Virus record (IMG/VR): IMGVR_UViG_3300044730_000954
Reading direction: 5' to 3' (one strand)
Source: an uncultured virus (IMG/VR IMGVR_UViG_3300044730_000954)
Lineage: Duplodnaviria > Heunggongvirae > Uroviricota > Caudoviricetes
Length of the DNA stretch: 36,743 bases
Shown here: positions 10,602 to 28,709 of the stretch, piece by piece
How the letters are laid out: each line of letters begins with the position of its first letter
Position numbering within the stretch: position 1 is the first letter of the stretch
Notes under the pieces: model-generated
The model's input: only the letters and a program-made list of their open reading frames with translations
What the model was told of the DNA's origin: nothing
Databases searched by the model: none
Translations under genes and position numbers: made by a program

Positions 10602-10848
10602 TTTCTACCCTTTCATTTTCGTAGTGTGTTCTGTCATAGTTAGCAAGTGTCCCACCATTTTCTAGGTGGGCTTTCCTGCGTAATTGTTCATCTGAGTAGG
10701 TAGCCACTATGCTACACACTCGCAAGGCTCAACGCCGTAATCGTCATTGTCGCCATAGAATATAACGCCGTGCCCATAGCACTCATCGCATTTAATTCTT
10801 TCTAGTGAGTTAATCATTTACTTATTTCCTTTCTTTAGTCTTTTGATA

Positions 10849-10870
10849 ATTCTATACCCTACCACTGACA
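10849..10870 (-). promoter_or_regulatory. SigA-type promoter with TGTCAG-N10-TAGAAT
   Basis: Plus strand ATTCTA-N10-CTGACA. Confidence 0.65.
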
Positions 10871-11206
10871 AAATCACTAGGGCAATTCCTAGCCATGAGG
10901 CGTAGAAATCTGCTTGAGCGGTTTCTATTGCGATACCCTCTGAGCCTAACTCAATTAGTAAATATCTATCCATTTTGTTATTTATCCTTTCTTATCCGTT
11001 GAAGTGTGGAGAATATTCTCCGTCTGTAATCTCTGTTGAGATAATGTCATAACCATTTGATACAAGGGTATCTAGTAGGTCATTTATTTGATACTCACTT
11101 ACCATGAGTCTATTTTCTACTGAGACAAGACTATTGTCTTTCTCTGCTGTATAACTTAGTGTTAGCATTTTTGCTACCTAACCTTTCTTTAGTTTCTATA
11201 CTGCGT

Positions 11207-11228
11207 ATTCTAGTGGATACCACTGACA
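11207..11228 (-). promoter_or_regulatory. SigA-type promoter with TGTCAG-N10-TAGAAT
   Basis: Plus strand ATTCTA-N10-CTGACA. Confidence 0.65.
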
Positions 11229-11266
11229 TTTTGGGGGATATTTAGGGCGTGTCGCCCTTTTATTTT

Positions 11267-11282
11267 TGTGACTTACCTCACA
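11267..11282. promoter_or_regulatory. CRP/GlxR-like palindrome TGTGA-N6-TCACA
   Basis: Perfect match, tgtgacttacctcaca. Confidence 0.65.
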
Positions 11283-11415
11283 CTTTGTAGGGAATCTACA
11301 CAATTTGGACATATCGCAATAATGTTGCGTTTTGATACATAGGTGGTCTGACCACATAACTTACAATTTTTCTTACTCATTTTGAAATCCTTTCTGTTGA
11401 TTTCTTATACTGCGT

Positions 11416-11444
11416 ATTCTACACGAATACCCTGACAAAGTCAA
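11416..11444 (-). promoter_or_regulatory. Promoter TTGACT-17-TAGAAT with TGTCAG spacer motif
   Basis: Reverse complement reads TTGACT t TGTCAG ggtattcgtg TAGAAT. Confidence 0.75.
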
Positions 11445-11465
11445 GTCTAAACCATGCGTGTCTTT

Positions 11466-11532
11466 TGTGGTGTTGGTCACATGGACAAATCGGACATTTG
11501 GGACAGGCCCGGGACTTGTGGCATACCTCACA
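11466..11532. promoter_or_regulatory. Divergent control centre: two CRP-like boxes flanking AAATCGGACATTT and CCCGGG
   Basis: TGTGG-N6-TCACA at 11466 and 11517; other motifs at 11487 and 11508. Confidence 0.6.
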
Positions 11533-11570
11533 AAAATTCTTTTCCGACACGCCCGAAATACCCTTCAAAA

Positions 11571-11592
11571 TGTCAGTCCCCCATGCTAGACT
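11571..11592 (+). promoter_or_regulatory. Promoter TGTCAG-N10-TAGACT (extended -10)
   Basis: tgtcagtcccccatgctagact. Confidence 0.65.
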
Positions 11593-11637
11593 TCAGTCAT
11601 AACAAAATAAAGAAAGTTCCAAAGAAAGGAAACTAAA

Positions 11638-11796
11638 ATGAAAAATCTAATAGGTAGAATTACTGAACACGATTTAGCAATGGCTAATCGTATCGCTGAT
11701 AGAAGCAATAAGACACCTGCTCAGGTGCTTAAAGACTTCAACGCTTTTCTAAATGAAGTAGAAAAGTTTGAAAATGATGAAGAGGAGTGTGAGTAA
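11638..11796 (+). CDS. Hypothetical protein (52 aa)
   Basis: MKNLIGRITEHDLAMANR... behind an AGAAAGGA RBS; translated by hand. Confidence 0.65.
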   Translation: MKNLIGRITEHDLAMANRIADRSNKTPAQVLKDFNAFLNEVEKFENDEEECE

Positions 11797-11799
11797 TAA

Positions 11800-11946
11800 A
11801 TGAAAAAGAATGTTTTGATTTCATACATCGTTGATACAGATAGCGATGTGAAAGCAATTTTTGCTTTGCGTAAATCACTTTCAGTTTTGTCTGATAGTGA
11901 ATTAGAAAAGTTTGACGCATTTGAAGTTTTAGATGTTGTTGAATAA
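11800..11946 (+). CDS. Hypothetical protein (48 aa)
   Basis: MKKNVLISYIVDTDSD...; follows the previous ORF. Confidence 0.6.
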   Translation: MKKNVLISYIVDTDSDVKAIFALRKSLSVLSDSELEKFDAFEVLDVVE

Positions 11947-11988
11947 ATAAAAAAGTTTTTTACTAATTGACAAAGTTAGTAAAAAATT

Positions 11989-12110
11989 CCCGGGGCCGAC
12001 ACGCCCGACCTCGTTGTAAGATCTTGTGATAATCCTCACAAAAATAATTTTCAAAATGTCCGATTTATACTGATTTTAGATTTGATTTTGTCAGTCTAAT
12101 CTGCTAAACT
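11989..12110 (+). promoter_or_regulatory. Composite promoter cassette: CCCGGG, GACACGCCC, CRP-like box, AAATGTCCGATTT, TTGATT-17-TAAACT
   Basis: Motifs at 11989, 11998, 12025, 12054 and 12082-12110. Confidence 0.7.
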
Positions 12111-12144
12111 TACAGAGTAAGAAAATAGAAAGGTAGGTCAAAAA

Positions 12145-12342
12145 ATGACTACACTAAATAAAACAGAAATAATGGAATACCTAGTAGATAATGATTTCTG
12201 CGTGACTGATAAAGTCTGCGTATTCTGCTCAACGATCACAGACGGCTGGAATGCTATCTGCTATAAATGCGGTGACTATAAAGGAATGATGAGGCTTCCT
12301 GAAGCCGTAGAATACTATGGAACAGATGTTCTAGGGTTTTAG
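12145..12342 (+). CDS. Small zinc-finger-like protein
   Basis: CVFC...CYKC; AGAAAGG RBS. Confidence 0.7.
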   Translation: MTTLNKTEIMEYLVDNDFCVTDKVCVFCSTITDGWNAICYKCGDYKGMMRLPEAVEYYGTDVLGF

Positions 12343-12442
12343 TGACTAACCTCACAAAGCCCAAGCGTGTGTCTAATTTGACTTTCACGCTAAAAAATGA
12401 AATAATAGAATTATTAGAAAGTATCTTAGAAAGGATAACTAA

Positions 12443-12655
12443 ATGAAATCATATTCAATTCCAGACCTGCTCGTAGGTCAAACTTACTACCCTCGCTCAC
12501 TAGCGAGAAAATTCCAATATGGAGAAATAAACTTCGCTGAAAAGCGTGAGGATATTTATCTTGCTGAAGGATATGAGGCTTACGCAATTCGCTTCACTCC
12601 TAATTCTACTCACTCCTATAAGTGGGCTACTGTCGCCGTAAAGGTGGCAGACTAA
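12443..12655 (+). CDS. Hypothetical protein
   Basis: 70 aa; AGAAAGGA RBS and upstream TTGACT promoter. Confidence 0.75.
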   Translation: MKSYSIPDLLVGQTYYPRSLARKFQYGEINFAEKREDIYLAEGYEAYAIRFTPNSTHSYKWATVAVKVAD

Positions 12656-12775
12656 TGAAATTAGATGAATTCAAGGCTTATATTGAAAGCCAGCGCAAAG
12701 CGCAACAATTGACAAACTTAGAGAAAATCGCTAAAATTGTATCAACAACAAACACCAAGAAAGGTAATAACTAAA

Positions 12776-13033
12776 ATGAATACAGATTACAAAGACTATC
12801 CATTCACAGTTAATGGCGTAAAGTTTATTTCACGCATTAACGCAGACTCTCCATTCGCAGGCACACTTGCGAAACTTCCTACTCAGGTTGTAACTCAACT
12901 AAATATTGACGCAGTTACAGAAATTATTGGTGACGCTTCACTTCTAACTCATGATGAATTGTTGGAAGAATTAGAAAGAGTAAATGACGGCGGAACTCAC
13001 GCCTTCATTCTATTAGATGAGGTGGCTAACTAA
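12776..13033 (+). CDS. Hypothetical protein
   Basis: Start at MNTDY behind AGAAAGG. Confidence 0.7.
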   Translation: MNTDYKDYPFTVNGVKFISRINADSPFAGTLAKLPTQVVTQLNIDAVTEIIGDASLLTHDELLEELERVNDGGTHAFILLDEVAN

Positions 13034-13224
13034 TGATGACACGCAAAGACTATATTGAAACCGCTAACATTCTTAAAGGATTTAGCGGAGAAATTCACCC
13101 ACAAGTATTTGAGGATTTGGTAGAAGAATTTTCTCAATTCTTTTTATCTGATAACGATAGATTTGACAAAGCACGATTTGAGAAAGCGTGTGGCGTTGAT
13201 GAGTTAGGATTAATTCCAGCATGA
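13033..13224 (+). CDS. Conserved small phage protein (MTRKDY...RFDKARFEKAC type)
   Basis: Motif recognised from other phage hypothetical proteins; translationally coupled. Confidence 0.75.
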   Translation: MMTRKDYIETANILKGFSGEIHPQVFEDLVEEFSQFFLSDNDRFDKARFEKACGVDELGLIPA

Positions 13225-13376
13225 CAGATTTAATTTTAACTCTCGCTATAATTTCTTTCGCAACACTTTTCGGAATGAGTTTAATTACTATGAGAAAATT
13301 AGAAATTGAAAATAGAAAATTGCGAATTGAAAATTCTGAAATGAAATGGAATCAGATAAAGATCTAAATTGCTTTC

Positions 13377-13540
13377 GTTGAGATTTCAACTAAATTGGTT
13401 GAAGTTTCAACAAAGCCCCCCGGGGGGTTTTCCACAGGTTATCCACAGTGTGAATTAAGACACAATTACGGGATTTTGTGAGATTCCCCACATTTTTTGG
13501 GCGTGTCTAATTGGAAATTGTCAGTAGAAAATGATAGGCT
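13377..13540 (+). promoter_or_regulatory. Composite regulatory region: tandem GTTGA-N4-TCAAC palindromes, C6G6, two DnaA-box-like 9-mers, two CRP-like boxes, GGGCGTGTC and a TGTCAG promoter
   Basis: Motifs at 13377, 13398, 13416, 13428, 13439, 13449, 13477, 13499 and 13519-13540. Confidence 0.65.
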
Positions 13541-13570
13541 AGAAGCCTAAAAATGAAAGAAGGTAATCTA

Positions 13571-14068
13571 ATGGGATTAGATATGTATCTCCACGCTAAA
13601 AAATACGTGGAAAAAATAAATTGGCAGGCGTTACAGAATAATGATGAATTGTCCTATGACTCACCTGAAGCAGTATTCCCTTTGTGGAATAATATTGTTG
13701 AAACAGCAGGAATGAAAGATGTTGCTGTTGATATCTATGGCGTTCATGTTGAAGTGACTTGTGCTTATTGGCGCAAGGCTAATCAGATACACGCTTGGTT
13801 TGTAAAGAATGTTCAAGGTGGAGAAGATAATTGTGGGGAATACTATGTATCCCATGAGAAATTGAAATCCTTACTTGATCTAGTGAATAAGGCTTTGGCA
13901 GAGCGTGACCCTAACTTGCTACCGCCACAGGCAGGATTTTTCTTTGGCGGTACTGATATTGACGAATGGTATTGGCAAGACCTAAAGAATACTAAGGCTA
14001 AATTGGACAGAGTATTTGCCCTGCCCGAAATGTCCAAATTGTCCTTTTACTACACTTCATCGTGGTAG
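13571..14068 (+). CDS. Conserved phage protein (MGLDMYL...YWRKANQIHAWF...YTSSW family)
   Basis: Characteristic N- and C-terminal motifs; function unknown. Confidence 0.85.
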   Translation: MGLDMYLHAKKYVEKINWQALQNNDELSYDSPEAVFPLWNNIVETAGMKDVAVDIYGVHVEVTCAYWRKANQIHAWFVKNVQGGEDNCGEYYVSHEKLKSLLDLVNKALAERDPNLLPPQAGFFFGGTDIDEWYWQDLKNTKAKLDRVFALPEMSKLSFYYTSSW

Positions 14069-14141
14069 AAGGGCGAGGGGATTTGAAAATGTCAGCCCCC
14101 TATGATAGGATTTCAGTATGAACAGAAAGAAGGAAAGAAAA

Positions 14142-14357
14142 ATGGATAAATTGGAATACGCACTTCGCATGATTAGAAATTGCGATTTTTGTAATGGAAC
14201 AGGTAATCTGTATTGGTCAGTAGGCGAGGATTTTGACTCAGAGGTTTGCGTTTGTAATCCTTATGAACTAATCCTAGACGGAGATGAAGTTATTTGGGAT
14301 AATGGCTTACTAAGTGAGCCAGAATTGGCTATATTCGCAGGAAGCGAGGCTAACTAA
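14142..14357 (+). CDS. Small zinc-finger-like protein
   Basis: CDFCNGTG...CVCNP. An alternative leaderless start is possible at 14118. Confidence 0.7.
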   Translation: MDKLEYALRMIRNCDFCNGTGNLYWSVGEDFDSEVCVCNPYELILDGDEVIWDNGLLSEPELAIFAGSEAN

Positions 14358-14358
14358 T

Positions 14359-14643
14359 ATGGGAAGTAATTTTGCTAATGATTTGGCTTTGGCTGATAAT
14401 CTTGATATTGAAACTCAGATAGGTATCCACCTGAAGTCTAATCACTACCCGCCCGTTCCTGATTTTATGGTGCCTACTTGTATTGAGGCTATTGACGCCG
14501 TAAATGACGCAGGGCTTTGGCACTTAGAAATTCCCCTACCTGAAGGGGTATTCTATAAAGGTAATTTGACTACCGCACCAGCACACGCTATTATTGACCA
14601 ACACCACTTAGAAGCATGGATTATTGAAAGAGAGGAATACTAA
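14359..14643 (+). CDS. Conserved hypothetical protein
   Basis: HLKSNHYPPVP...HHLEAW. Confidence 0.75.
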   Translation: MGSNFANDLALADNLDIETQIGIHLKSNHYPPVPDFMVPTCIEAIDAVNDAGLWHLEIPLPEGVFYKGNLTTAPAHAIIDQHHLEAWIIEREEY

Positions 14644-14644
14644 G

Positions 14645-14854
14645 ATGGAATATATGTATGTAATAACTACTTACTATGACGGAGAGTTATATAATACTCA
14701 CCGAATTGCTGACTTTACTGATGCCGCCCGTGTTTGGGAATTGTGTAAAGATAGCGGTAATGCTAAAGAATACGCAACCTATAATCTCACAGACCCGACA
14801 GGTAAAATGTATACAAAAAACTTTTACACTGACGGCAGAGTATCTGTAAAATAG
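14645..14854 (+). CDS. Hypothetical protein
   Basis: Follows a GAGG RBS. Confidence 0.7.
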   Translation: MEYMYVITTYYDGELYNTHRIADFTDAARVWELCKDSGNAKEYATYNLTDPTGKMYTKNFYTDGRVSVK

Positions 14855-14861
14855 GTATACA

Positions 14862-15074
14862 ATGCTAACTATGGATTATCGCATGGTAGATGTTCTGAAC
14901 TCAGACCAACTAGAAATAAACGATCTAATTGGTTTGGGTGATGAAGTCGTAAAAGTTTTATTTATCACACCAACTAAAATTGGTTTTGATTTGCTAATTG
15001 AAAATGAATATGGCGAGAAAGATACAATTGAAATTGTTGATGATGAACAATTTGAATTATTTATTTTAGAATAA
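14862..15074 (+). CDS. Hypothetical acidic protein (beta-barrel-like)
   Basis: ORF track; the start may be 14871. Confidence 0.65.
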   Translation: MLTMDYRMVDVLNSDQLEINDLIGLGDEVVKVLFITPTKIGFDLLIENEYGEKDTIEIVDDEQFELFILE

Positions 15075-15158
15075 AAACCCCCCGGGGCGCCCGAAATGTC
15101 CGATTTGTTAAGAAACTCCTGATTTGCTTTAATGATATTTTTATGATAAGATTATTTT

Positions 15159-15284
15159 ATGTTTAAGAAAACTAGTGAAGATTTAAGACGCCTTATGGAA
15201 TTAAGGAGATCTAATGCTGCTCGCCCATTAAGGAATAAAAAGAAATACTCACGTAAAATTAAACACAAAAATTTGACACACTAA
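15159..15284 (+). CDS. Small basic peptide (41 aa)
   Basis: MFKKTSEDLRRLMELRRSNAARPLRNKKKYSRKIKHKNLTH; ATG lies 6 nt after TGATAAGAT. Confidence 0.6.
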   Translation: MFKKTSEDLRRLMELRRSNAARPLRNKKKYSRKIKHKNLTH

Positions 15285-15320
15285 TGATTTTTTGATATTA
15301 TTATTTCAGAAAGGTACCCC

Positions 15321-16037
15321 ATGAAATTAAAACGCTCTAATGATAGAAAAGTGGCTAATGCCGTATCCCCTAATGGTAAAACGCCTACTATTGCTAATAC
15401 CTTCGGACTACCCGCAGGAAAAGATTACTCATGCCCTAATCAGACACCGACATGCGCTAAAGTCTGCTATGCAGGGAAGTTAGAAAAGATATACAAAGGT
15501 GTTAGAGATACCCTATTGCATAACTGGAATTTACTTAAAGACGCAGACCATGATACTATGGAAGCGTTATTACAAGACATGATAAATGATTTCAGAAAAG
15601 ATTGTGATAAAAGGGAAGCTCCAAAGTTATTCCGTATCCATTGGGACGGAGATTTCTTTAATGATACTTATACACTAGCATGGAAAAGTGTTATTCTAAA
15701 TAATACAGACATACAATTTTGGGTTTATACTCGTGTACCCGCCGCCGCCCGTATGCTAAAAGAGATTGACAACCTATCTCTCTATTTTAGTACTGATACA
15801 GATAACAAAGATGAGGCTATTGAGTTATCACAAAGTGGAATTAGATTAGCATACTTAGCGGATACCTTCGCAATTGGGCAGTCAGACATGAAAGCCATGA
15901 TTGGCAGGGTAGGCGCAAAATGTCCTGAAAACAAAAAAGCAATTCCTCTAATTGACAAAGAGGGCTCTGCTTGTGTAAAATGTTCCTTGTGTGTCTATAA
16001 CAAAGCGGACATAGTGTTTAGTGCTAAGAAAAAATAG
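15321..16037 (+). CDS. Gp88-like protein (Fe-S, radical-SAM-related phage family)
   Basis: FGLPAG..SCP..TPTC.KVCYA, RIHWDGDF, FWVYTR and C-terminal CP...CVKCSLC. Confidence 0.8.
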   Translation: MKLKRSNDRKVANAVSPNGKTPTIANTFGLPAGKDYSCPNQTPTCAKVCYAGKLEKIYKGVRDTLLHNWNLLKDADHDTMEALLQDMINDFRKDCDKREAPKLFRIHWDGDFFNDTYTLAWKSVILNNTDIQFWVYTRVPAAARMLKEIDNLSLYFSTDTDNKDEAIELSQSGIRLAYLADTFAIGQSDMKAMIGRVGAKCPENKKAIPLIDKEGSACVKCSLCVYNKADIVFSAKKK

Positions 16038-16229
16038 GGGGAATAATGGAAATCTTTATCATTCTATTTATATTATTTATCATAACCCTTATGGGCATGG
16101 GTCATGAGTGATATAAGTCACAAAGAAATAATCTCAAAATATGAGATTTCTTAGATTTGGACTTGACAAATAAATACAAAAAATGTCATAATAAGACAGT
16201 AAGAAAAACAACTAACGAAAGGAAACACA

Positions 16230-16394
16230 ATGTCAGTATCAGTAGCAACTTACAAGGTAGGCGACACCTACACCTCTCAAAAGAGCAAGGTGACAGGCGT
16301 TATCAAGGAAATCGTGCCAACCGATAAGAATACAGTTAGAGTCAAACTAGATGTCAATGGCTCAACTCGCTGGACAACTTGGAAGCAAAAGTAA
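16230..16394 (+). CDS. Small SH3/KOW-like beta protein (54 aa), paralogue of 16993-17160
   Basis: MSVSVATYKVGDTYTSQKSKVTGVIKEIVPTDKNTVRVKLDVNGSTRWTTWKQK; GAAAGGA RBS. Confidence 0.75.
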   Translation: MSVSVATYKVGDTYTSQKSKVTGVIKEIVPTDKNTVRVKLDVNGSTRWTTWKQK

Positions 16395-16410
16395 TTCCTA
16401 ATACAGGAAA

Positions 16411-16440
16411 AGTCCTGAGCATGACTACTAAAAAGGCTCA
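16411..16440 (+). ncRNA. Pseudoknot motif copy 1
   Basis: AGTC-CTGAGCA-T-GACT-actaaaaag-GCTCA. Confidence 0.7.
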
Positions 16441-16508
16441 ATTTGATTTCTTTACTAGAAAATGCTAGTATAGGATAAGCCCTAAAACACCAACAGAAAG
16501 GAAATAAA

Positions 16509-16931
16509 ATGGCTAGACAGAAAGCAATTAGCGTGAAAATCGCTACCACTAAAGTTATCAAGGCTTTAGAAACTAAGTTAGCACAAATCAAAAATGATTA
16601 TGCTAAGCAAGATGAGAACGAGGCGAAGTTCCAAAAGGCTACTGAGAAGTGGAATAAGGAAATCGCTAAGTTAGCCGTAGCACAAATCTCTAAGGCTAAA
16701 AATGTTCGCACAAGTTATCGTTCTTGGAATAACACCCTAAATGTTGATTTTGACTTAGAACTCAACGAGAAGGAGTTTCCACCGCAACCTGAGCGTGATT
16801 TTGAGCAAATCCACCGCCACTCTTACAATGAGATGGTAGAGGAAATTGAGAACGCAATTCGTATTCTCAAGATGACAGATGAGGAAACAGTTTCCACTTC
16901 TACTTACAACGCTATCGCAAGATACTTGTAA
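16509..16931 (+). CDS. Hypothetical coiled-coil protein
   Basis: 140 aa; CAGAAAGGA RBS. Confidence 0.85.
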   Translation: MARQKAISVKIATTKVIKALETKLAQIKNDYAKQDENEAKFQKATEKWNKEIAKLAVAQISKAKNVRTSYRSWNNTLNVDFDLELNEKEFPPQPERDFEQIHRHSYNEMVEEIENAIRILKMTDEETVSTSTYNAIARYL

Positions 16932-16937
16932 AATTAC

Positions 16938-16965
16938 TTTCCTGAGCATGAAATAAAACTGCTCA
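16938..16965 (+). ncRNA. Pseudoknot motif copy 2
   Basis: TTTC-CTGAGCA-T-GAAA-taaaac-TGCTCA. Confidence 0.75.
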
Positions 16966-16992
16966 ACACACACCAACAGAAAGGAAAAACAA

Positions 16993-17160
16993 ATGACATT
17001 AGGCGGATACACTTATCAAGTAGGAGATTTATTCACTACTTCTAAAACAGGTATCACAGGTCGCATTGAAAAGTTTGTTCCACAAACTAAGAATGTTACT
17101 CGTGTAATGCTACGCTTGGCAAATGGTCAGCAAAGATTTGCTATGGTAAAAACTTACTAA
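16993..17160 (+). CDS. Small SH3/KOW-like beta protein (55 aa), paralogue of 16230-16394
   Basis: MTLGGYTYQVGDLFTTSKTGITGRIEKFVPQTKNVTRVMLRLANGQQRFAMVKTY; CAGAAAGGA RBS. Confidence 0.75.
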   Translation: MTLGGYTYQVGDLFTTSKTGITGRIEKFVPQTKNVTRVMLRLANGQQRFAMVKTY

Positions 17161-17165
17161 CAAAA

Positions 17166-17194
17166 TTATCCTGAGCAAGATAAAAAACTGCTCA
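17166..17194 (+). ncRNA. Pseudoknot motif copy 3
   Basis: TTATC-CTGAGCA-A-GATAA-aaaac-TGCTCA. Confidence 0.75.
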
Positions 17195-17306
17195 AAAAAT
17201 CCCCCCCGGGAAATGTGAGAATGATCACAAAGCTGGTTTACGGCACGATTTGTATTTTTCCCACATTTTTGATATGATTAGATATACAAACAGAAAGGAA
17301 ACCCCC

Positions 17307-17582
17307 ATGTTAGCAACTGCTATCGCACTACAAGAAGCAACACAAGAAGCCGTCCATGATGAAGAAACTATGGCTATGGCTTCTGCTTTATTTCATCACA
17401 GAAATGAATTAGAAGAAGATGATTTTATCAGAATGATTTATATGTATTCTGCTCATCTTGCTTCACTTACCGCTACCCTCGTCACACATGTCTGCTTGAC
17501 AGAAACACAATTAAATGAGATGATGGATACTATTAAAGAAATGAACACCATTGGAGAGGAAATAACAAATGGAAACGACTAA
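17307..17582 (+). CDS. Hypothetical protein
   Basis: Start MLATA behind CAGAAAGGA. Confidence 0.8.
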   Translation: MLATAIALQEATQEAVHDEETMAMASALFHHRNELEEDDFIRMIYMYSAHLASLTATLVTHVCLTETQLNEMMDTIKEMNTIGEEITNGND

Positions 17583-18021
17583 TGAAACTGTGGTACCAGC
17601 CCACTACAACCCTAATCAAATCGTGACTTATAAAGTTATTGATTCTGATTCAACAGACCAAACAAACTGGTACCCCACAGTAAAGGTTAGCGACCTTGAA
17701 TATGAATTGCACCAACACCGCAGAGAAAGACGGGAACTTAATAGATACACTCAGCATGTAGGCATGTTAGAAAGTCGTCTTCCTGATTATCTTGATATGG
17801 ATTCAGAGGAGATAGTTGCAGACATATGCAGTATCTTTGGATTTAATCCTACCAAGGAAATTCAATTTGAGGCTACCGCCACAATTACAGGAACAATATC
17901 AGTTCCGTTAGATGAAGTTGCTAACTTTGATGTCAGTGATATTGACTTAAATGTTTATGCTGAACTAAATTCATATGACGGAGATGTAGATGTTGAGATA
18001 GATAATATCTATAAAGCGTGA
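17569..18021 (+). CDS. Hypothetical acidic protein
   Basis: 150 aa; overlaps the upstream gene. Confidence 0.8.
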   Translation: METTNETVVPAHYNPNQIVTYKVIDSDSTDQTNWYPTVKVSDLEYELHQHRRERRELNRYTQHVGMLESRLPDYLDMDSEEIVADICSIFGFNPTKEIQFEATATITGTISVPLDEVANFDVSDIDLNVYAELNSYDGDVDVEIDNIYKA

Positions 18022-18035
18022 TAGTGGGGCTATCC

Positions 18036-18063
18036 AGGACCTGAGCACGTCCTAAAACTGCTC
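18036..18063 (+). ncRNA. Pseudoknot motif copy 4
   Basis: AGGAC-CTGAGCA-C-GTCCT-aaaac-TGCTC. Confidence 0.75.
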
Positions 18064-18145
18064 CACAAAAATCCCGGGCACATTTTTTGATCTTTGTCAA
18101 GCTTTAAGAGAATGTCCGATTTATCCCGATTCTTGCTAGTATAGT

Positions 18146-18174
18146 TTGACTTTGTCGGTTATGTCTGCTAAGAT
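18146..18174 (+). promoter_or_regulatory. Promoter TTGACT-17-TAAGAT with TGTCGG spacer motif
   Basis: ttgactttgtcggttatgtctgctaagat. Confidence 0.75.
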
Positions 18175-18205
18175 TGATTCTAAATGGCTATAGAAAGGAA
18201 AAAAA

Positions 18206-19222
18206 ATGGCTCATGAATTAGAAACGCAAAATGGCGTTGCTTCATTCGCATCATTCCGTGAACCTGCTTGGCATGGTCTAGGCACAGTATTCACAGAAGA
18301 AAAAACTACGGCAGAAATGCTCGCTGCTGCTAATCTAAATAATTGGAATGTTAGATTAGAAGATGTAAATATTCCATCACACCTTGTCTCAGATAAGGCT
18401 TACCAATATGTTGTTAGGACAAATCCTACAAATAACACTCAGACAGATGTTCTTGGTGTTGTAGGCGAACGATATGTTCCACTACAAAATGAAGAATTAT
18501 TCTCATTCGGTGATAATATCCTAGACGGCGGAGGTCGTTGGGAAACTGCTGGCTCAATTCGTGGAGGTCGTGTTGTATTCGGCTCTCTTGCTCTTGAGCG
18601 TGAAACTGTATTAGACCCTAGCGGTGTTGCTGATAAGGTAAAGACTTATTTGCTTATCAATACATCACATGATGGCTCTATTGCTATTCAAGCGTCAATC
18701 ACACCTGTTCGTGTTGTATGTGCTAACACTCTTAACCTTGCTCTAGGTGGCAGAAAGAAGAAAGACGGCGTAAAGCAATCTTTCAAGATTCGTCATACTC
18801 AGACAGCACAGGGTAAAGTACAAATTGCTCGTACTGCTCTTGGTCTTGCTAATGCTTACATGGACGAGTTTGATAAACTTGCTCATGCTATGATTCAGAA
18901 AGAAATCACTGCTGGTCAATTCAATGAGATTATTCTCGCTGCTTATCCTAAGCCTGAAAAGGATTCTAAGGGTTCAATCAAAAAGTGGGCAAATAAAGTT
19001 GATGTTATCAACGATATTTATACAGGTGAATTCAATGGCATGATTGCTGGCTCTGCTTGGGGCGCTTTCAATGCTCTAACTGAACGCCTTGATTGGCACC
19101 GCTCTGCTCGTGGAGATAATAACGAATCTCTACTTGCTGCTGCTTCTGGTTTTGATGCGACAATTACCGCAGAAAAAAATCGTTTGCTAAAAGTAGTAAA
19201 GGATGTTCTAGCGATTGCGTAA
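18206..19222 (+). CDS. DUF932 / TIGR03299 family phage-plasmid protein
   Basis: MAHE...PAWHGLG, ETAGSIRGGRVVF, NTSHDGS, TPVRVVCANTL and IRHT. Confidence 0.9.
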   Translation: MAHELETQNGVASFASFREPAWHGLGTVFTEEKTTAEMLAAANLNNWNVRLEDVNIPSHLVSDKAYQYVVRTNPTNNTQTDVLGVVGERYVPLQNEELFSFGDNILDGGGRWETAGSIRGGRVVFGSLALERETVLDPSGVADKVKTYLLINTSHDGSIAIQASITPVRVVCANTLNLALGGRKKKDGVKQSFKIRHTQTAQGKVQIARTALGLANAYMDEFDKLAHAMIQKEITAGQFNEIILAAYPKPEKDSKGSIKKWANKVDVINDIYTGEFNGMIAGSAWGAFNALTERLDWHRSARGDNNESLLAAASGFDATITAEKNRLLKVVKDVLAIA

Positions 19223-19231
19223 GTAATCGCA

Positions 19232-19259
19232 ACTCCTGAGCAAGAGTATAAACTGCTCA
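19232..19259 (+). ncRNA. Pseudoknot motif copy 5 (about 10 nt upstream of tRNA-Asp)
   Basis: ACTC-CTGAGCA-A-GAGT-ataaac-TGCTCA. Confidence 0.75.
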
Positions 19260-19268
19260 ATTTTTTTT

Positions 19269-19343
19269 GGTGCGTTAGATTAGTTTGGTTAAATCGTTAG
19301 CTTGTCACGCTAGAGATCATGGGTTCAAATCCCATACGCATCG
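19269..19343 (+). tRNA. tRNA-Asp (GUC)
   Basis: Acceptor GGTGCGT/ACGCATC, anticodon arm TTAGC-TTGTCAC-GCTAG, T arm ATGGG-TTCAAAT-CCCAT, G discriminator; CCA not encoded. Confidence 0.9.
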
Positions 19344-19476
19344 CAAAAAATCCCCCGGGGTGTCCGTTTTGTACCTTTTACGTAACTAAATTGTATTTCT
19401 TGAAATCTTTTATTAAGAGGGACTTGATTTTTTCCCAGTTTTTTGCTAAAATTTATTTACCACAGAAAGGGTATAT

Positions 19477-19638
19477 ATGTTAGGTTATACAAGATATGAT
19501 ATAGAAAAAATGATTGCATCAATAGATATTGCTATTATCTATTTAGAGGATCATGTAAGTAAAGAAGCATTGGCTATGAAGGGATTAGCAGATACCGCTA
19601 GTTTATTAGAAGGTTTAATTGCTGAAGGTCATGTTTGA
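19477..19638 (+). CDS. Hypothetical protein (53 aa)
   Basis: MLGYTRYDIEKMIASI...LEGLIAEGHV behind CAGAAAGGG. Confidence 0.7.
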   Translation: MLGYTRYDIEKMIASIDIAIIYLEDHVSKEALAMKGLADTASLLEGLIAEGHV

Positions 19639-19688
19639 CATACCCTGCCATTTTTGCTAGAATAATATCACCAACAGAAAGGACCCCC

Positions 19689-20429
19689 ATGCCAAATTGG
19701 GTATATAACACCTTGACAATTCAAGGACCAAAAGAGCAAGTTGATTCTATAAAAGATAGGCTCAATGCTCCATATAAGAAAACATTTGAGAATTGGAATA
19801 TGCAATCTCAACAAATGGAATTCAAGGAATATGAATTCTCTAATCCTGTCTTTGCATTTCATAATATATATAATCATTTGCAGGACGGTGTCTCAGATGA
19901 GACATATCATTTGCAGAAAGACCCAAACGAGAATTCTGAATATATGTTCTCAGGTAATAACTGGTATTCATGGAATGTCCGTAATTGGGGAACTAAATGG
20001 GATGTTGCTGTTCATAATGACGATAAGTATCCTGATACTTCTTTGCTAGAACATATGTCTAATGGTGAGGACCAATGGGTTGTATATTCATTCAATACCG
20101 CTTGGTCGCCGCCTGTGCCTGCTATGGAGAAGTTGTCTGCCCTTGTGCCTAACTGTGTAATTACTCTTACATATCAAGAGGAACAAGGTTGGGGTGGGGA
20201 AGTAGAATTTGTCAATGGAAAGATGACTGCTGAATCTAATTATGAATCTCAGTGCAGAGATTGTGATGCAATTGACTGCATGGATTATTGTGATAATGAT
20301 TGTGGCGAAATATGTAATGAATGTCACTATCTAGGCGAGGCAGACCTAGAGTGTGTTGCGGAATGCGATATACATAAAGTATACTTGGACGACGACCATG
20401 TTCCAGAATACAGAAGGGTAAAATCATAA
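19689..20429 (+). CDS. DUF1281/YubB (Api92-like) ferredoxin-like domain protein with Cys-rich C-terminal extension
   Basis: MPNWVYNTLTI, WYSWNVRNWGTKWD, FNTAWSPP, and multiple CxxC motifs at the C-terminus. Confidence 0.85.
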   Translation: MPNWVYNTLTIQGPKEQVDSIKDRLNAPYKKTFENWNMQSQQMEFKEYEFSNPVFAFHNIYNHLQDGVSDETYHLQKDPNENSEYMFSGNNWYSWNVRNWGTKWDVAVHNDDKYPDTSLLEHMSNGEDQWVVYSFNTAWSPPVPAMEKLSALVPNCVITLTYQEEQGWGGEVEFVNGKMTAESNYESQCRDCDAIDCMDYCDNDCGEICNECHYLGEADLECVAECDIHKVYLDDDHVPEYRRVKS

Positions 20430-20647
20430 TGGAATCAGAATACATAGCACGTAAAACTAAACTAATAGAATATACCAAAATACATATTATTAGTTTAGAA
20501 CAAGACCTTGAAGGGATTGCTTCAGAAATGGAGTTGCTAGACCCTGCCTCTAAGGACTATAATGAGTTAGACTTTGAATATAATCATATGTCAGGGCAGA
20601 TTCTTTCTGCTCGTTACCTTTTGAAAACAATGGAGGAAATGCTGTGA
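20429..20647 (+). CDS. Hypothetical protein
   Basis: Translationally coupled ORF. Confidence 0.75.
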   Translation: MESEYIARKTKLIEYTKIHIISLEQDLEGIASEMELLDPASKDYNELDFEYNHMSGQILSARYLLKTMEEML

Positions 20648-20919
20648 TTGACCCATACCCGCTAGAAATACAACCACATCTGCAGAGGCAGATTGACGCA
20701 GGCTCTTCAGCCCTTGATATCATGCATGGGCACCTGAAGGAACTTCTATACGAAGCAGAGCAAGAACTGGAGAATGCACAACGTGTAGAGGACGAGACTG
20801 AAGAGGCAATGGATTCCATGGAGCGGCGGTACTGGGAAGGACAAGTAGACGCTCTATCTTATCTATATAGTCTTACATACCAACTATCATTTGAATATGC
20901 AGAAAGGGAAAGCAAATGA
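20644..20919 (+). CDS. Hypothetical protein
   Basis: GTGA overlap; MERRYWEGQVDAL. Confidence 0.75.
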   Translation: MIDPYPLEIQPHLQRQIDAGSSALDIMHGHLKELLYEAEQELENAQRVEDETEEAMDSMERRYWEGQVDALSYLYSLTYQLSFEYAERESK

Positions 20920-21284
20920 GTTTAGATCTACAAGAACAAACACGTAGGGACGATGTATATCGTGACCTAAATGATATCTTAGATAGGGTTACTAAACTTC
21001 CTGTCTTCCCATCATTAATGTGGGTATGGGCCTTTGATATCATGAAAGAGATATTTGAGAACTATCAGATGAAGGACCTTGCTGTAAATGATTATGTTGA
21101 TGAGGCTGTGCCTGAAGGCATAACTTTAAAACAAATCTTTGATAAGTTCTGGGAAGATGTAGACGGTTTCGGTCTTAGCATGGATTCGGGCGGGGACATC
21201 ATAGAAGAGACAATCAGAGATTGGATGAGAGATAACAATTTTCTTGTATCCCTGGAAGATGACGGGTGGCTGAACGATGTATGA
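20916..21284 (+). CDS. Hypothetical protein
   Basis: ATGA overlap; CAGAAAGGGA RBS. Confidence 0.8.
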   Translation: MSLDLQEQTRRDDVYRDLNDILDRVTKLPVFPSLMWVWAFDIMKEIFENYQMKDLAVNDYVDEAVPEGITLKQIFDKFWEDVDGFGLSMDSGGDIIEETIRDWMRDNNFLVSLEDDGWLNDV

Positions 21285-21343
21285 GCAGTTGACATTGCCA
21301 TTAGATTTTGATATGATTGAACAAACTATAGAAAGGAAATACC

Positions 21344-21836: not shown

Positions 21837-22076
21837 ATGGCTATCAGACGAGGACTAAGATTACCGCCTTCTAAAGAAGAGAAGGTGGCTATTTCTATTG
21901 GCAAATTATTATCCGATTATTCATTAGATTTAGAATCAGTAGGTAGGTATCTTGCTACGGCACAACCTTATGTCGTTTATCGCAGGGCAGTAGAAGTATT
22001 AGAAGCAACAGAGTATAATAAAGAAGTAGCAGAATATAGAGAAATGGGTAAATACTATGGCGACGGACTTTTCTAA
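21837..22076 (+). CDS. Hypothetical protein
   Basis: Start MAIRR behind GAAAGGGA. Confidence 0.7.
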   Translation: MAIRRGLRLPPSKEEKVAISIGKLLSDYSLDLESVGRYLATAQPYVVYRRAVEVLEATEYNKEVAEYREMGKYYGDGLF

Positions 22077-22329
22077 TATATCAGAGATATTAGCAAAGCT
22101 TTATATACAATACAGAGATGATAGCACGTTCTCTGATTTTATTGAATATAATGATGTTGGATTGCCGCTTGCTTACCTTACCGCCGAAAATCTATGCGAG
22201 CCCAGTGACGATGGACGACGGTATGTAATAGAAACATGGGATCTATTTTTATCTGCACTAGAAATAAAAGATACAGGATATACATCTTTAGAAGAAATAT
22301 TTCAGGCAGCAGGAAATAAAGATACTTGA
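22057..22329 (+). CDS. Hypothetical protein
   Basis: FIEYNDVGLPLAY; 90 aa. Confidence 0.75.
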   Translation: MATDFSNISEILAKLYIQYRDDSTFSDFIEYNDVGLPLAYLTAENLCEPSDDGRRYVIETWDLFLSALEIKDTGYTSLEEIFQAAGNKDT

Positions 22330-22354
22330 CAATGGCATTGTATTTTGCTACAAT
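22326..22354 (+). promoter_or_regulatory. Consensus promoter TTGACA-17-TACAAT
   Basis: ttgacaatggcattgtattttgctacaat, including an extended TG. Confidence 0.85.
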
Positions 22355-22360
22355 AGATTT

Positions 22361-22458
22361 ACCAAGAGGCAGGAATTCTTAGGACGAGGGGATTTATCCG
22401 CTTCTGACATGGGACTAACACTCTCTTGGTCGCCCTGAGCATGGCGTAAAACTGCTCA
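22361..22458 (+). ncRNA. Small RNA candidate A: closing stem ACCAAGAG/CTCTTGGT plus 3' pseudoknot motif copy 6
   Basis: Begins 7 nt after the -10, has no convincing ORF, and ends in CGCC-CTGAGCA-T-GGCG-taaaac-TGCTCA. Confidence 0.7.
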
Positions 22459-23094
22459 TAATATTTTGCCCCGGGTCAAATCATATCAAATCGGACATTT
22501 ACGACAAACATAAATATTTCCCAAAATTTTATTAAGAAGCCTTTTCAAAAAATCCCAGAAAGTTTTGTTATATAATTGTTATATGCCTAAAAGATATTTT
22601 TCAAAAGCTATGTTTGATAAACATTATTCATATCATCATTATGATGAATCACCAGAAGGTATATTTGAATATAAGGTATATAGGGGATTACGAAGTATCT
22701 TTTCTATACCCCGATTTTTTTGGCGGCGGCTGCGGCGGCGGTAGCGGCGGGGCATAAAAAAGATTACGATCATTACAAATTATCCCCATATAAAACATTA
22801 CGAACATATCAAATTTTTCCTGGATATTTTCAAATATTTTCCATATGTTTTATAACTTTTTGTTATACTTTTAAAACATTTTTGGGCAAAATTATAACAT
22901 TTTAATATCAATATTTGAGACAATATTGCCCATATATTGGACTTGACAAATAGAATTTTATATGGTAATGGTTTGGGAACTGGGTTGGTTTGAACTGGAC
23001 ATTACGAACGCCTCTGTAAAAGATGCTTCATCCCCCACTTTCCTCCATTTTCCTCCACAAAATTAATAAGAAAATATTATCAGTAAGATTTATT

Positions 23095-23146
23095 TGTGGA
23101 TATCTTGTGTATAAACCTGTGGATAACTATATTAAATTGTGGACAA
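23095..23146 (-). promoter_or_regulatory. Cluster of four co-oriented DnaA-box-like 9-mers
   Basis: TGTGGATAT 23095, TGTGTATAA 23106, TGTGGATAA 23118 and TGTGGACAA 23138. Confidence 0.65.
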
Positions 23147-23174
23147 ATAGGGGTATTTATGATACAATGTTTAT

Positions 23175-23375
23175 ATGCCTAGCCAAGAAACTAAATGGTA
23201 TAAAGATATAAAGTTGATAGAAGCTTTGGACAAAATGCGCCAAGCTAATTTAGATTTTATGTCTAAATGTTATTTTTGTGGCGCTAAGTCCATAGGTATA
23301 AAGGCTATAGAAGAAAAGTTATTTTCTGTATGTTCTGATCATGAATTTAACGGGGTATCAGGAAAATCCGTATAA
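23175..23375 (+). CDS. Small zinc-finger-like protein
   Basis: CYFCG...VCSDH; leaderless geometry. Confidence 0.65.
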   Translation: MPSQETKWYKDIKLIEALDKMRQANLDFMSKCYFCGAKSIGIKAIEEKLFSVCSDHEFNGVSGKSV

Positions 23376-23539
23376 TCCCCATATGCTTCTTCACATAATG
23401 GGCAATATGAATTAACATTTCTGGTCTTATCTAAACTAACCAGCAATAATCCTTTATCCTGCATATCTAATATCTCTGGATCTAATCTACCATGTACTAT
23501 AGGTATTAGTTTAGTCTTACATGTTATACAGTTAAGCAT
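23339..23539 (-). CDS. Small zinc-ribbon protein
   Basis: CITC..LIPIVHG...YCPLC; leaderless geometry. Confidence 0.7.
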   Translation of the reverse strand: MLNCITCKTKLIPIVHGRLDPEILDMQDKGLLLVSLDKTRNVNSYCPLCEEAYGDYTDFPDTPLNS

Positions 23540-23566
23540 GAGATTATTATACTATACCGCCCCTGT

Positions 23567-23595
23567 TTGACATACCCCCAACATTTTGCTATACT
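23567..23595 (+). promoter_or_regulatory. Consensus promoter TTGACA-17-TATACT
   Basis: TTGACA at 23567, 17-bp spacer ending in TGC, TATACT at 23590. Confidence 0.85.
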
Positions 23596-23601
23596 TATAT
23601 C

Positions 23602-23736
23602 TAGAAGGCAAGAACGGTTAGTTACCCTTAAATGGGAGAACATGGCCGTAACTCTTCTCATCGCTCCCTTTCTGGCGATGAAGTCGTCCCTCCCTTTCTG
23701 GGGATGCGCTCCTGGGCATGAGCGATAAACTGCCCA
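23602..23736 (+). ncRNA. Small RNA candidate B: 5' stem-loop, two hairpins with identical UCCCUUUCUG loops, and 3' pseudoknot motif copy 7
   Basis: CATCGC-TCCCTTTCTG-GCGATG; CGTCCC-TCCCTTTCTG-GGGATG; CGCTC-CTGGGCA-T-GAGCG-ataaac-TGCCCA. Confidence 0.75.
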
Positions 23737-23969
23737 CTTTCTGTTGTATAATATCTTATGCCTCCAACTCATCTACATGGATATCAAATCTTTAAATTAG
23801 ATAAAAAAACGTTATATTCTTGTACTAGATGTGGATGGGAAAGGATAGTAGATGAAACAGATTACGAACGAGATATTTCCTATTCAACGTGATGTAGATG
23901 ATCACATTGATGATTTTGATAAATACGACATTATTTGACTTCCCCGCCCATTTGTGAGATACTGGGAAG

Positions 23970-24677
23970 ATGCCAGGTTTTATATCTAATTCAGCATACG
24001 GCGAAGATGCCATGCTATATGGTCTAATGGATAGACTAAAATCAATTAGTCATATTGATACATTTGCAAAACAAAGCTATATAGACATTGGATGTTTTCA
24101 TCCTGTTATAGATAATAATACTTATTTTTTGTATACCCTCGGTTGGAGGGGAACACTTGTTGATCCAAATCCAATAATTAAAGATGAAGTTGCAAAGCAT
24201 AGATATCTAGACCAGTACCTTCAGGTTGCAGTTGATGTTGAGGCAGGAACAAGAGAGTTATATATGTTTGGCGATACCAGTTCAATCAATACTCTAGATA
24301 AAGAGTTTTCAGAAAGACTTGCCACAGCAGGACAATTACAAATGCAAAAATCAATTAGCGTAGAATGTATTACGATGGATGAAATTTTTTCCAGACACAT
24401 GCAGAAGCATAACTATCCTCCAATTATTCTTAATATAGATATTGAGGGATTAGATTACGATGTCATTACTTCTTATTCCTTTCAGTACCGCCCATTGTTT
24501 ATCCTCATTGAGGATGATATTTTGGGCAGCTTTGAAGGTTCAAGATTAAAGACGCTAATGGAAAGCAAAGATTATAAAATAGTGTCTTCAAATTTCATTA
24601 CAGGTATTTATATGGACACCACTTCTCCTCTATATAAAGACTTGAAAAAAGTTGGCTATTATGATAGGATTGATTAA
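23970..24677 (+). CDS. FkbM-family SAM-dependent methyltransferase
   Basis: YGED, YIDIGCFHP..NNTY.LY..GWRG..VDPNP, and LNIDIEGLD. Confidence 0.9.
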   Translation: MPGFISNSAYGEDAMLYGLMDRLKSISHIDTFAKQSYIDIGCFHPVIDNNTYFLYTLGWRGTLVDPNPIIKDEVAKHRYLDQYLQVAVDVEAGTRELYMFGDTSSINTLDKEFSERLATAGQLQMQKSISVECITMDEIFSRHMQKHNYPPIILNIDIEGLDYDVITSYSFQYRPLFILIEDDILGSFEGSRLKTLMESKDYKIVSSNFITGIYMDTTSPLYKDLKKVGYYDRID

Positions 24678-28606: not shown

Positions 28607-28680
28607 GGAACATTAGCTCAGTTGGTTAGAGCCCCCGACTCATAATCGGGTCGTCGTAGGTTCAAGTCCTACATGTTCCA
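28607..28680 (+). tRNA. tRNA with CAU anticodon (probably Ile2, otherwise elongator Met)
   Basis: Acceptor GGAACAT/ATGTTCC, anticodon arm CCCGA-CTCATAA-TCGGG, T arm GTAGG-TTCAAGT-CCTAC; no initiator features. Confidence 0.92.
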
Positions 28681-28709
28681 CAGATGCTATAATTGAATAA
28701 AGGGGTAAT

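Follow-up and report, generated by a model that had tools for sequence, protein, structure and literature searches.

A predicted small RNA family of uncultured freshwater phages with hairpin loops complementary to early-gene ribosome-binding sites

We analyzed a 36,743-nucleotide (nt) stretch of DNA from an uncultured virus of the class Caudoviricetes (IMG/VR record IMGVR_UViG_3300044730_000954; the whole stretch is referred to here as the window) and found in it a small RNA gene that is previously undescribed. As judged from comparisons among related sequences, the element is a real, conserved RNA family. Its two hairpins have identical 10-nt loops, which are complementary to the Shine-Dalgarno (SD) sequences used by early-type genes of the same phage. 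A first-pass annotation, made from the letters of the window alone, had proposed an RNA of this kind. We tentatively favor, at a little short of even confidence, a trans-acting RNA that occludes early-gene ribosome-binding sites in the style of the small RNAs (sRNAs) 6C/B11 or RNAIII. As part of this whole reading, the element would be the gene for an RNA of ~140 nt on the plus strand (~23602 to 23745; see Table 1 for its parts).

A conserved RNA with its own promoter

The near-consensus promoter of the first-pass annotation (TTGACA-17-TATACT) was read directly at its coordinates. It scored 11/12 and was the joint best of 20 promoter-like sites between positions 22000 and 24500, although the number of such sites is itself unremarkable (12.5 ± 3.8 in shuffled sequences). 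In members of the family described below, the equivalent position also has a -35 and a -10 box, the latter preceded by TGN. Regarding RNA folding, the plus strand reached -52.9 kcal/mol (z = -2.99; 0 of 200 shuffles were equally stable), while the minus strand had a z score of only -0.54. The G+C content of the element was 0.49 to 0.53, compared with ~0.30 to 0.36 in the adjoining sequence.

The predicted structure consists of a long 5' stem-loop (P1), two hairpins, and a terminal pseudoknot, all of which had been proposed in the first pass and are backed by covariation in relatives. Identical loops on differing stems were found exactly where they had been reported. A 12-nt direct repeat (CTCCCTTTCTGG; spacing, 26 nt) is the only sequence common to the two hairpin units. 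Hairpin 2 contains a G-U pair, and the fold is therefore specific to the plus strand.

Family members were collected by pattern scans. A loop-spacer-loop scan of viral contigs gave 29 loci, including 18 family members, and a scan for loop 2 and the pseudoknot with loop 1 left free gave 21 loci in viral contigs, all of them members and 3 of them new. A motif scan of metagenome contigs gave 92 loci with 42 members; the 50 nonmembers were unrelated repeats, ~24 of which were a single coding repeat found largely in gut metagenome records. Pattern scanning of 185,579 bacterial and archaeal species genomes yielded six hits, all chance coding matches, and no members; these genomes thus contained no prophage or host copy and no clue to the host. 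From the viral and lake metagenome contigs, 41 distinct sequences were taken. L119, which is cut at the end of its locus, was dropped, and L077, in whose available flank no -10 box lay, was never included. The resulting alignment consisted of 40 distinct full-length sequences.

The structure derived from the window was paired in 94.4% of the cells of this alignment (column shuffles, 83.4 ± 0.6%; slid partners, 43 to 48%). Cells with changes on both sides of a pair numbered 95, compared with 24.7 ± 3.8 expected, and none of 500 shuffles was as high. Hairpins 1 and 2 were paired in 99.6% and 100% of the cells, with changes on both sides in four and five of the six pairs, respectively. The loop core CCUUUCUG did not vary, nor did the closing G. 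The pattern that the first-pass annotation had suggested looking for in relatives, i.e., invariant loops on covarying stems, was thus observed. The pseudoknot stem S2 also covaries (GAGCA/UGCUC versus GGGCA/UGCCC), with an A-U pair in 27 and a G-C pair in 12 of the 40 sequences. For P1, 90.7% of the cells were paired, and both strands were changed in L018-type members (CAGUCAA/UUGACUG). The length of the RNA in the family ranges from 115 to 152 nt, and the difference comes mainly from P1.

An alternative fold, in which the 5' AGAAGG pairs with the 3' tail, is the minimum-energy structure, yet it is disfavored, since L018-type members show covariation of P1 with its internal partner and several members have no tail. 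The U-rich 3' tail is the probable transcript end; some relatives have plain U runs in place of the tail motif (e.g., UUUUUUUG in L028). A simple terminator scan called nothing at 23707-23747. A canonical intrinsic terminator has a G+C-rich hairpin with a loop of 3 to 8 nt and a direct U run; the closing helix here has a loop of 12 nt, forms the pseudoknot, and is followed by the U-rich tail.

Regarding coding potential, the earlier view that the RNA contains no convincing open reading frame (ORF) held, and the element reads as a noncoding structured RNA. An 82-codon antisense ORF (23524-23772) was considered and rejected. Its frame was stop-free in 10 of the 12 members checked; the other two (L022 and L050) had stops in all three antisense frames, and the lengths of family members differ by non-multiples of three.

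The first-pass annotation had not recognized the element as a described family, and our searches agree. Rfam 15 yielded two tRNAs only for the whole window at the gathering score and no matches for the region 23450-23850, even at an E value of ≤10. A blastn search against the phage collection gave no match. No description of the motif or of a similar phage RNA was found in the literature searched, which did not extend to subscription journals and bioRxiv supplements, and publications containing the loop strings were unrelated among the matches listed.

Given that motif scans force part of the loop, we also searched by synteny. Of the 369 related phage stretches that carry the linked early gene, 80 loci with an 83 to 92% identical DUF932 gene formed a synteny set. 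A covariance model built from the alignment (its E values are rough) located it at the syntenic position in 14 of these loci, nine with two hairpins (86 to 139 bits) and five with one (34 to 49 bits). The RNA is thus an accessory cassette, present in 14 of 80 related loci. The loops of these members were UCCCUUUCUG, CCUUCCUUUCUG, AACCUUUCUG, UACCUUUCUG, and, once, UCCCUUUCUA. CCUUUCU was kept in every loop and the final G in all but one, whereas the first two bases were free (variants start with UACC, UUCC, or AACC). This check of the loops is not fully independent because the model itself favors the motif.

A different hairpin was seen in relatives without the RNA. At positions 7700-7900 of L188, and likewise in L165, L186, L187, L190, L214, and L179, a hairpin loop with CAUCCUUUCUU lies upstream of the DUF932 gene and is followed by a pseudoknot module. 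It is another display of CCUUUCU, which possibly acts in cis on the site of the next gene.

Complementarity to early-gene ribosome-binding sites

The motif CAGAAAGG occurred 10 times in the window (1.01 ± 1.00 expected; 0 of 100 shuffles reached 10). Two of these occurrences are the loops of the element itself on the opposite strand, and the remaining eight coincide exactly with the eight ribosome-binding sites that the first-pass annotation had listed for the early-like region. The shorter AGAAAGG occurred 20 times (5.6 ± 2.4 expected). Outside the element, 17 of 18 occurrences lie 6 to 13 nt ahead of an ATG that opens an ORF of 35 to 338 codons, all within 10.8 to 21.4 kb; the lone exception is at position 695 on the minus strand. 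The gene cluster with these 17 sites includes members of the Pfam families GP88 (1.2e-53) and DUF932 (5.3e-49), both named from mycobacteriophage proteins, and we presume it to be early from knowledge of the phages L5 and D29.

The proposal that the loops are complementary to this class of ribosome-binding sites was borne out, in that the loop core is the exact complement of (C)AGAAAGG. Predicted loop-to-site duplexes ranged from -9.2 to -17.3 kcal/mol. For the 17 early start regions, the mean predicted duplex was -11.7 kcal/mol with the loop and -9.9 kcal/mol with the 16S rRNA tail motif, compared with -5.5 kcal/mol for the loop with 36 other gene starts. Four other RNA-bearing contigs contained four to nine copies of CAGAAAGG each outside the RNA's own copies of the motif (reversed control, 0 to 2 per strand); all but three were on the strand of the RNA, and all but one were upstream of it.

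In five phages, we scored 70 sites as ribosome-binding sites, one of them spurious (the antisense of the RNA). Immediately before AGAAAGG, C and A each occurred 30 times and T 10 times, with no G; immediately after it, A was commonest (39 sites), followed by T (20), G (8), and C (3). The fixed G of the loop thus stands opposite C in 30 of 70 sites and opposite G in none, where C makes up ~17% of bases, and the two variable first positions of the loop face variable target positions. The 16S tail, which we take to be ...CCUUUCU, has no partner for the preceding C, unlike the loop with its fixed G.

In the synteny set, AGAAAGG was denser where the RNA is present, with 157 occurrences in 202 kb (14 loci with the RNA) compared with 182 in 493 kb (29 loci without it, i.e., those of the 66 available at ≥16.8 kb). 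Among distinct sites, a C preceded the motif in 42 of 112 with the RNA and in 40 of 161 without it (P = 0.03), and a G followed it in 18 of 112 and 11 of 161, respectively (P = 0.017). The direction of both shifts fits loop pairing.

Another stretch of the window is complementary to a ribosome-binding site of a different type. At 23032-23059 (plus strand), CCCCCACUUUCCUCCAUUUUCCUCCAC contains two tandem copies of UUUCCUCCA, which are complementary to the canonical GGAGG site. It has no ORF longer than 62 codons, no good promoter was found there, its fold is unremarkable (z = +0.84 against shuffles), and the region varies between strains.

Table 1 Positions of the RNA element, its candidate targets, and associated features in the window
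Feature	Position(s)	Strand	Description
Promoter	23567..23595	+	TTGACA (23567-23572), 17-nt spacer, TATACT (23590-23595); TG ahead of the -10 box (extended -10)
P1, long 5' stem-loop	23603..23658	+	Predicted closing stem of AGAAG (23603-23607) with CUUCU (23654-23658); interior variable in length and sequence
Hairpin 1	23659..23680	+	CATCGC (23659-23664), 10-nt loop TCCCTTTCTG (23665-23674), GCGATG (23675-23680); RNA loop UCCCUUUCUG
Hairpin 2	23685..23706	+	CGTCCC (23685-23690), loop identical to that of hairpin 1 (23691-23700), GGGATG (23701-23706); one G-U pair
H-type pseudoknot module	23707..23735	+	S1, CGCUC (23707-11) with GAGCG (23720-24); S2, GGGCA (23714-18) with UGCCC (23731-35); A-rich linker AUAAAC
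3' tail ACUUUCUGUUGU	23736..23747	+	U-rich; third copy of CCUUUCUG in many relatives
Six more pseudoknot modules	16414-16439, 16941-16964, 17170-17193, 18040-18063, 19235-19258, 22434-22457	+	Pattern match
CAGAAAGG sites	15307, 16494, 16977, 17291, 19463, 19675, 20900; 11396	+; - (11396)	Scan of the window
Early-type gene cluster	10834..21336		17 (C)AGAAAGG SD sites
up66	23339..23539	-	Divergent leaderless 66-amino-acid (aa) gene for a four-cysteine zinc-ribbon protein; beside the RNA in 18/23 family loci
Downstream leaderless 44-aa ORF	23758..23892	+	TATAAT (23747-23752), 5 nt before the ATG; homologue in 7/23 family loci

A recurrent pseudoknot module

With its 3' part alone, the covariance model also matched four further places in the window. 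A pattern for this module (CCTGRGYANG, N4-10, AAANNGCYC) had seven matches in the window, all on the plus strand, with none expected; each of four other RNA-bearing contigs had five to seven, and an unrelated contig had none. Related loci contained 252 distinct instances, 247 of which were on the strand of the early genes, with the consensus NNNC-CU-GAGCA-N-GNNN-(N)UAAAAC-UGCUC. When S1 was scored by pairing the first C of CCUG and the three bases ahead of it with the G and the next three bases past GAGCA-N, all four pairs formed in 225 and three of four in 27 of the 252, despite very different sequences. Searching the region 16350-19300 against Rfam at an E value of ≤5 gave two chance-level hits, neither of which overlaps a pseudoknot module.

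The modules sit directly past the stop codons of early genes, and some are followed by U runs. Past at least one module (that at 16941), the next gene has its ribosome-binding site 13 nt later with no promoter between, and the module therefore cannot be a fully efficient terminator. We read the pseudoknot as a putative general module that forms or stabilizes 3' ends; its candidate roles are those of a terminator, a 3' stabilizer, or a protein site. Units with a promoter, P1, and a pseudoknot that lack hairpins with CCUUUCUG occur in the window (22355-22470) and in another locus (L237:13381), and the RNA therefore looks modular.

The unit in the window is a second small-RNA-like element (22326-22470, plus strand). 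It has the promoter TTGACA-17-TACAAT (11/12, with TG), no CCUUUCUG hairpins, and a variable insert closed by an 8-bp stem (ACCAAGAG/CUCUUGGU), followed by the pseudoknot module; it scored 15.8 bits with the covariance model and had a fold z score of -0.38. Other features near the modules include tRNA-Asp (19269-19344), which begins ~10 nt past the module at 19235-19258 and its U run (tRNA-Met is at 28607-28681). Short palindromes centered on CCCGGG (e.g., AUCCCCCCCGGGAAAU and UGCCCCGGGUCA) come within ~10 to 25 nt after several modules (stretches 17194-17215, 18064-18090, and 22458-22480, plus strand).

The zinc-ribbon gene and leaderless neighbors

Among related loci, up66 accompanied the RNA in 11 of 14, leaving three RNA-bearing loci without it, and was found in 1 of 66 loci that lack the RNA, where it was at the cut end of the contig. 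The three genes upstream of the cassette were found in most loci, with or without the RNA. In all 18 loci, up66 has a -10 box ending 6 to 10 nt before the ATG and no SD sequence. Its protein has four invariant cysteines (C4, C7, C46, and C49; pattern, CxxC...CPLC). It had no Pfam or PHROG hit, and the best PDB sequence profile had an E value of 0.56. A Foldseek search of the PDB with an AlphaFold2 model (pLDDT, 81.5) gave a best E value of 1.6. None of the 80 homologues carries a name, and the protein Atlas contained only viral clusters without a family.

The downstream 44-aa ORF has a TATAAT box 5 nt before its ATG and is therefore a separate transcription unit; some family members have a full new promoter after the RNA. 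Both this ORF and a neighboring 66-aa gene (23175-23375) share the leaderless layout of up66. The same arrangement (a TATAAT-like box 5 to 8 nt before the ATG and no SD sequence) was found at 8564(-), 23175(+), 23539(-), 23758(+), 25909(-), and 26662(+). The phage thus has two initiation styles, with leaderless genes outside the early-type cluster and short AGAAAGG leaders inside it; other sites also occur elsewhere. The first-pass annotation had assumed leaderless phage genes, and they are indeed common outside the cluster, including both genes that flank the RNA.

Phage, habitat, and host

The window has a G+C content of ~35% and encodes tail-fiber-like proteins, many glycosyltransferases, and a single-stranded DNA-binding protein. 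Near-identical DNA was found in 20 sequencing runs from 16 studies, mostly labeled as lake water or freshwater. The best isolated-phage matches of two early proteins were to Streptomyces and Mycobacterium phages (53 to 55% identity). Frequent leaderless genes would suit an actinobacterial host, and the gene content, which looks actinophage-like, suggests one. Isolated phages of Nanopelagicales have a G+C content of 44.7 to 44.8% and genomes of 39 kb (PMC10202952). The phage group described here differs from them, with 35 to 38% G+C and about 100 kb. Elsewhere in the window, a low-complexity GGCGGC-rich run (ttggcggcggctgcggcggcggtagcggcgggg; 22714-22752, plus strand) lies in an AT-rich stretch with no convincing gene.

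Comparison with known systems

The actinobacterial sRNA B11/6C pairs its two C-rich loops with ribosome-binding sites to repress translation, and either of the two is enough (PMC10470900). The element resembles it in being small, in having two hairpins, and in the complementarity of their pyrimidine-rich loops to ribosome-binding sites (here, 17 start regions with predicted duplexes). B11/6C works in bacteria without Hfq, and the probable host lineage of the phage is similar. Differences are that the element had no Rfam hit at an E value of ≤10 and that its loops (UCCCUUUCUG) have three C residues in a row rather than six or more. It is also phage encoded and has a pseudoknot end and, at the 5' end, a long stem-loop that varies; an entire class of phage early genes makes up its candidate targets. 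The element is not a member of this family, whose Rfam name is 6C.

The S. aureus RNAIII and RsaE-type sRNAs use C/U-rich (UCCC) hairpin loops as anti-SD sequences on several messages, and the C/U-rich loops of the element are proposed to act likewise. RNAIII and RsaE are, however, chromosomal regulators of host genes in Firmicutes, with no sequence or model match to the element. The complementarity of the element covers the 3'-most part of the ribosome-binding duplex (CCUUUCU) rather than the GGAG core.

T4 RegB, an endoribonuclease that cleaves GGAG in the SD sequences of early messages, brings about a class-wide early shut-off. The analogy is functional only, since RegB is a protein, whereas an RNA is proposed here, which would pair with the site and so mask it. 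Type III antitoxin RNAs (ToxI-like) and their phage mimics consist of short tandem structured units, some of them pseudoknotted. Unlike these, the two units of the element share only the loop-spanning 12 nt and differ in their stems, and no toxin-like gene was found beside the element, none of whose neighboring proteins could be placed in a Pfam or PHROG family (a check that did not include the PADLOC library). Compared with CsrB/RsmZ sponges, the loops lack GGA, and only the general layout of a repeated loop motif is in common. Cluster A mycobacteriophages (L5, D29, and StarStuff) produce abundant early noncoding RNAs that are toxic to the host and are described as being of unknown function (PMC5712189). 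These occupy a different genome position from the element, and a search of L5 (47000-52297) with the covariance model, filters off, revealed no similarity to the L5 early noncoding RNA (best score, 1.6 bits; E = 5.8).

Discussion

We infer the transcription, pairing, repression, and timing of the RNA from sequence, as follows. A strong host-type promoter would transcribe the RNA, and the pseudoknot module would close its 3' end. The two hairpins, plus the tail in many relatives, would each display single-stranded CCUUUCUG, the same sequence as the extreme 3' tail of the small ribosomal subunit with which (C)AGAAAGG sites must pair. These loops would pair with the common (C)AGAAAGG SD sequence of early-type genes, and possibly with similar host sites, and would keep ribosomes off early messages. 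Leaderless genes, including the two protein genes of the cassette, would stay translatable. The first-pass annotation had anticipated that leaderless genes would escape; being leaderless, the protein genes of the cassette would indeed escape a block on SD-led initiation, and their layout is consistent with that idea but is not evidence for it.

Several observations weigh against this reading. The promoter resembles early-gene promoters, and a delay mechanism must therefore be assumed. None of the 20 runs with DNA near-identical to the region searched (23000-24400) was recorded as RNA; two of them were labeled RNA-Seq, in which whole phage contigs were present in a DNA-like manner, and a true metatranscriptome gave no match. 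The duplex energies ignore the strain of pairing inside a 10-nt hairpin loop. The commonest base after AGAAAGG is A (39/70), which suits the 16S tail, whereas the G that would suit the loop follows in 8/70. The 16S 3' end of the host is an assumed one. AGAAAGG is also present in the 29 relatives without the RNA, 8 of which have at least 10 sites, and this site type is therefore not tied to the RNA. The statistics on loci with and without the RNA come from related, nonindependent phages, and the P values are modest. A check of flank covariation found no shift in site flanks that matches the loop variants (UACC and AACC; e.g., UACCUUUCUG), and the evidence runs against a simple story of loop-site coevolution. 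Finally, the tight linkage to the zinc-ribbon gene fits a role with a protein partner equally well.

A more far-reaching proposal, which we regard as rather doubtful, makes the RNA a phage mimic of the 16S 3' tail that serves as a class-wide translational timer on a modular platform, with the pseudoknot as a new element that forms or stabilizes 3' ends. By titrating the (C)AGAAAGG site that at least a dozen early genes have in common, such a timer would end early protein synthesis, and ribosomes would pass to leaderless genes and genes with other sites, including the leaderless zinc-ribbon partner in the cassette. The platform would comprise a promoter, a variable P1, cargo hairpins, and the pseudoknot end module that is used throughout the early region.

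It is unlikely, in our judgment, that the CCUUUCUG loops bind a protein rather than messages, as in a ribonucleoprotein or a decoy. The partner would be either the zinc-ribbon protein or a host factor or nuclease that recognizes the 16S 3' tail and is titrated or redirected. Several identical loops on variable stems do form the layout of a protein sponge, a third copy of the motif is often present in the 3' tail, and up66 co-occurs with the RNA (11/14 versus 1/66 loci; beside it in 18/23). This co-occurrence may, however, be mere linkage within one cassette with back-to-back promoters; up66 has no recognizable RNA-binding family, and three RNA-bearing loci lack it. Protein binding also leaves unexplained the exact complementarity of the loops to early sites, including the extra C:G pair.

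We give a small chance to the same pairing mechanism aimed at host messages, with SD-led host translation shut off and the match to phage sites a by-product of the common ribosome tail. The loop core is the sequence with which any AGAAAGG site pairs, so host sites would be bound too; the same site type is found in relatives that lack the RNA, which a site dictated by the ribosome would lead one to expect; and an early-type promoter fits takeover of the host. Against this, no fewer than 17 early genes of the phage itself would also be struck, and RNA-bearing phages show an enrichment of C ahead of AGAAAGG that points to phage sites.

A cis-acting or structural element (an insulator, a terminator, a processing block, or a leader for the downstream gene) without a trans target is improbable. 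The recurrence of the pseudoknot module alone after early genes and the promoter-P1-pseudoknot units without CCUUUCUG hairpins in relatives would suit such a role. However, the element has its own conserved promoter, some members have a full new promoter after it, and the downstream gene, whose homologue is found at only 7/23 loci, has its own -10 box 5 to 6 nt before the ATG; a structural role also does not account for loops that stay invariant while the stems covary. That there is no RNA at all, and that the sequence is instead the antisense ORF (open in 10/12 members) or a set of protein-bound DNA repeats (the direct repeat of CTCCCTTTCTGG), is scarcely credible given the stops in all antisense frames of two members, the length differences that are not multiples of three, the compensatory changes that keep the hairpins paired, and the fold z scores of the two strands.

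Temporal control in phages is usually explained by transcription factors and nucleases. If the trans-acting reading is true, an RNA that imitates the pairing sequence of the ribosome would be a new route to the class-wide shut-off of early genes and would connect phage timing with leaderless translation. Lakes contain the family in abundance. Its fixed loops, defined sites, and naturally occurring forms (one hairpin, two hairpins, or, in some relatives, no RNA) make it a clean test system, and the recurrent pseudoknot module, with its 252 distinct instances, is a separate undescribed RNA element.

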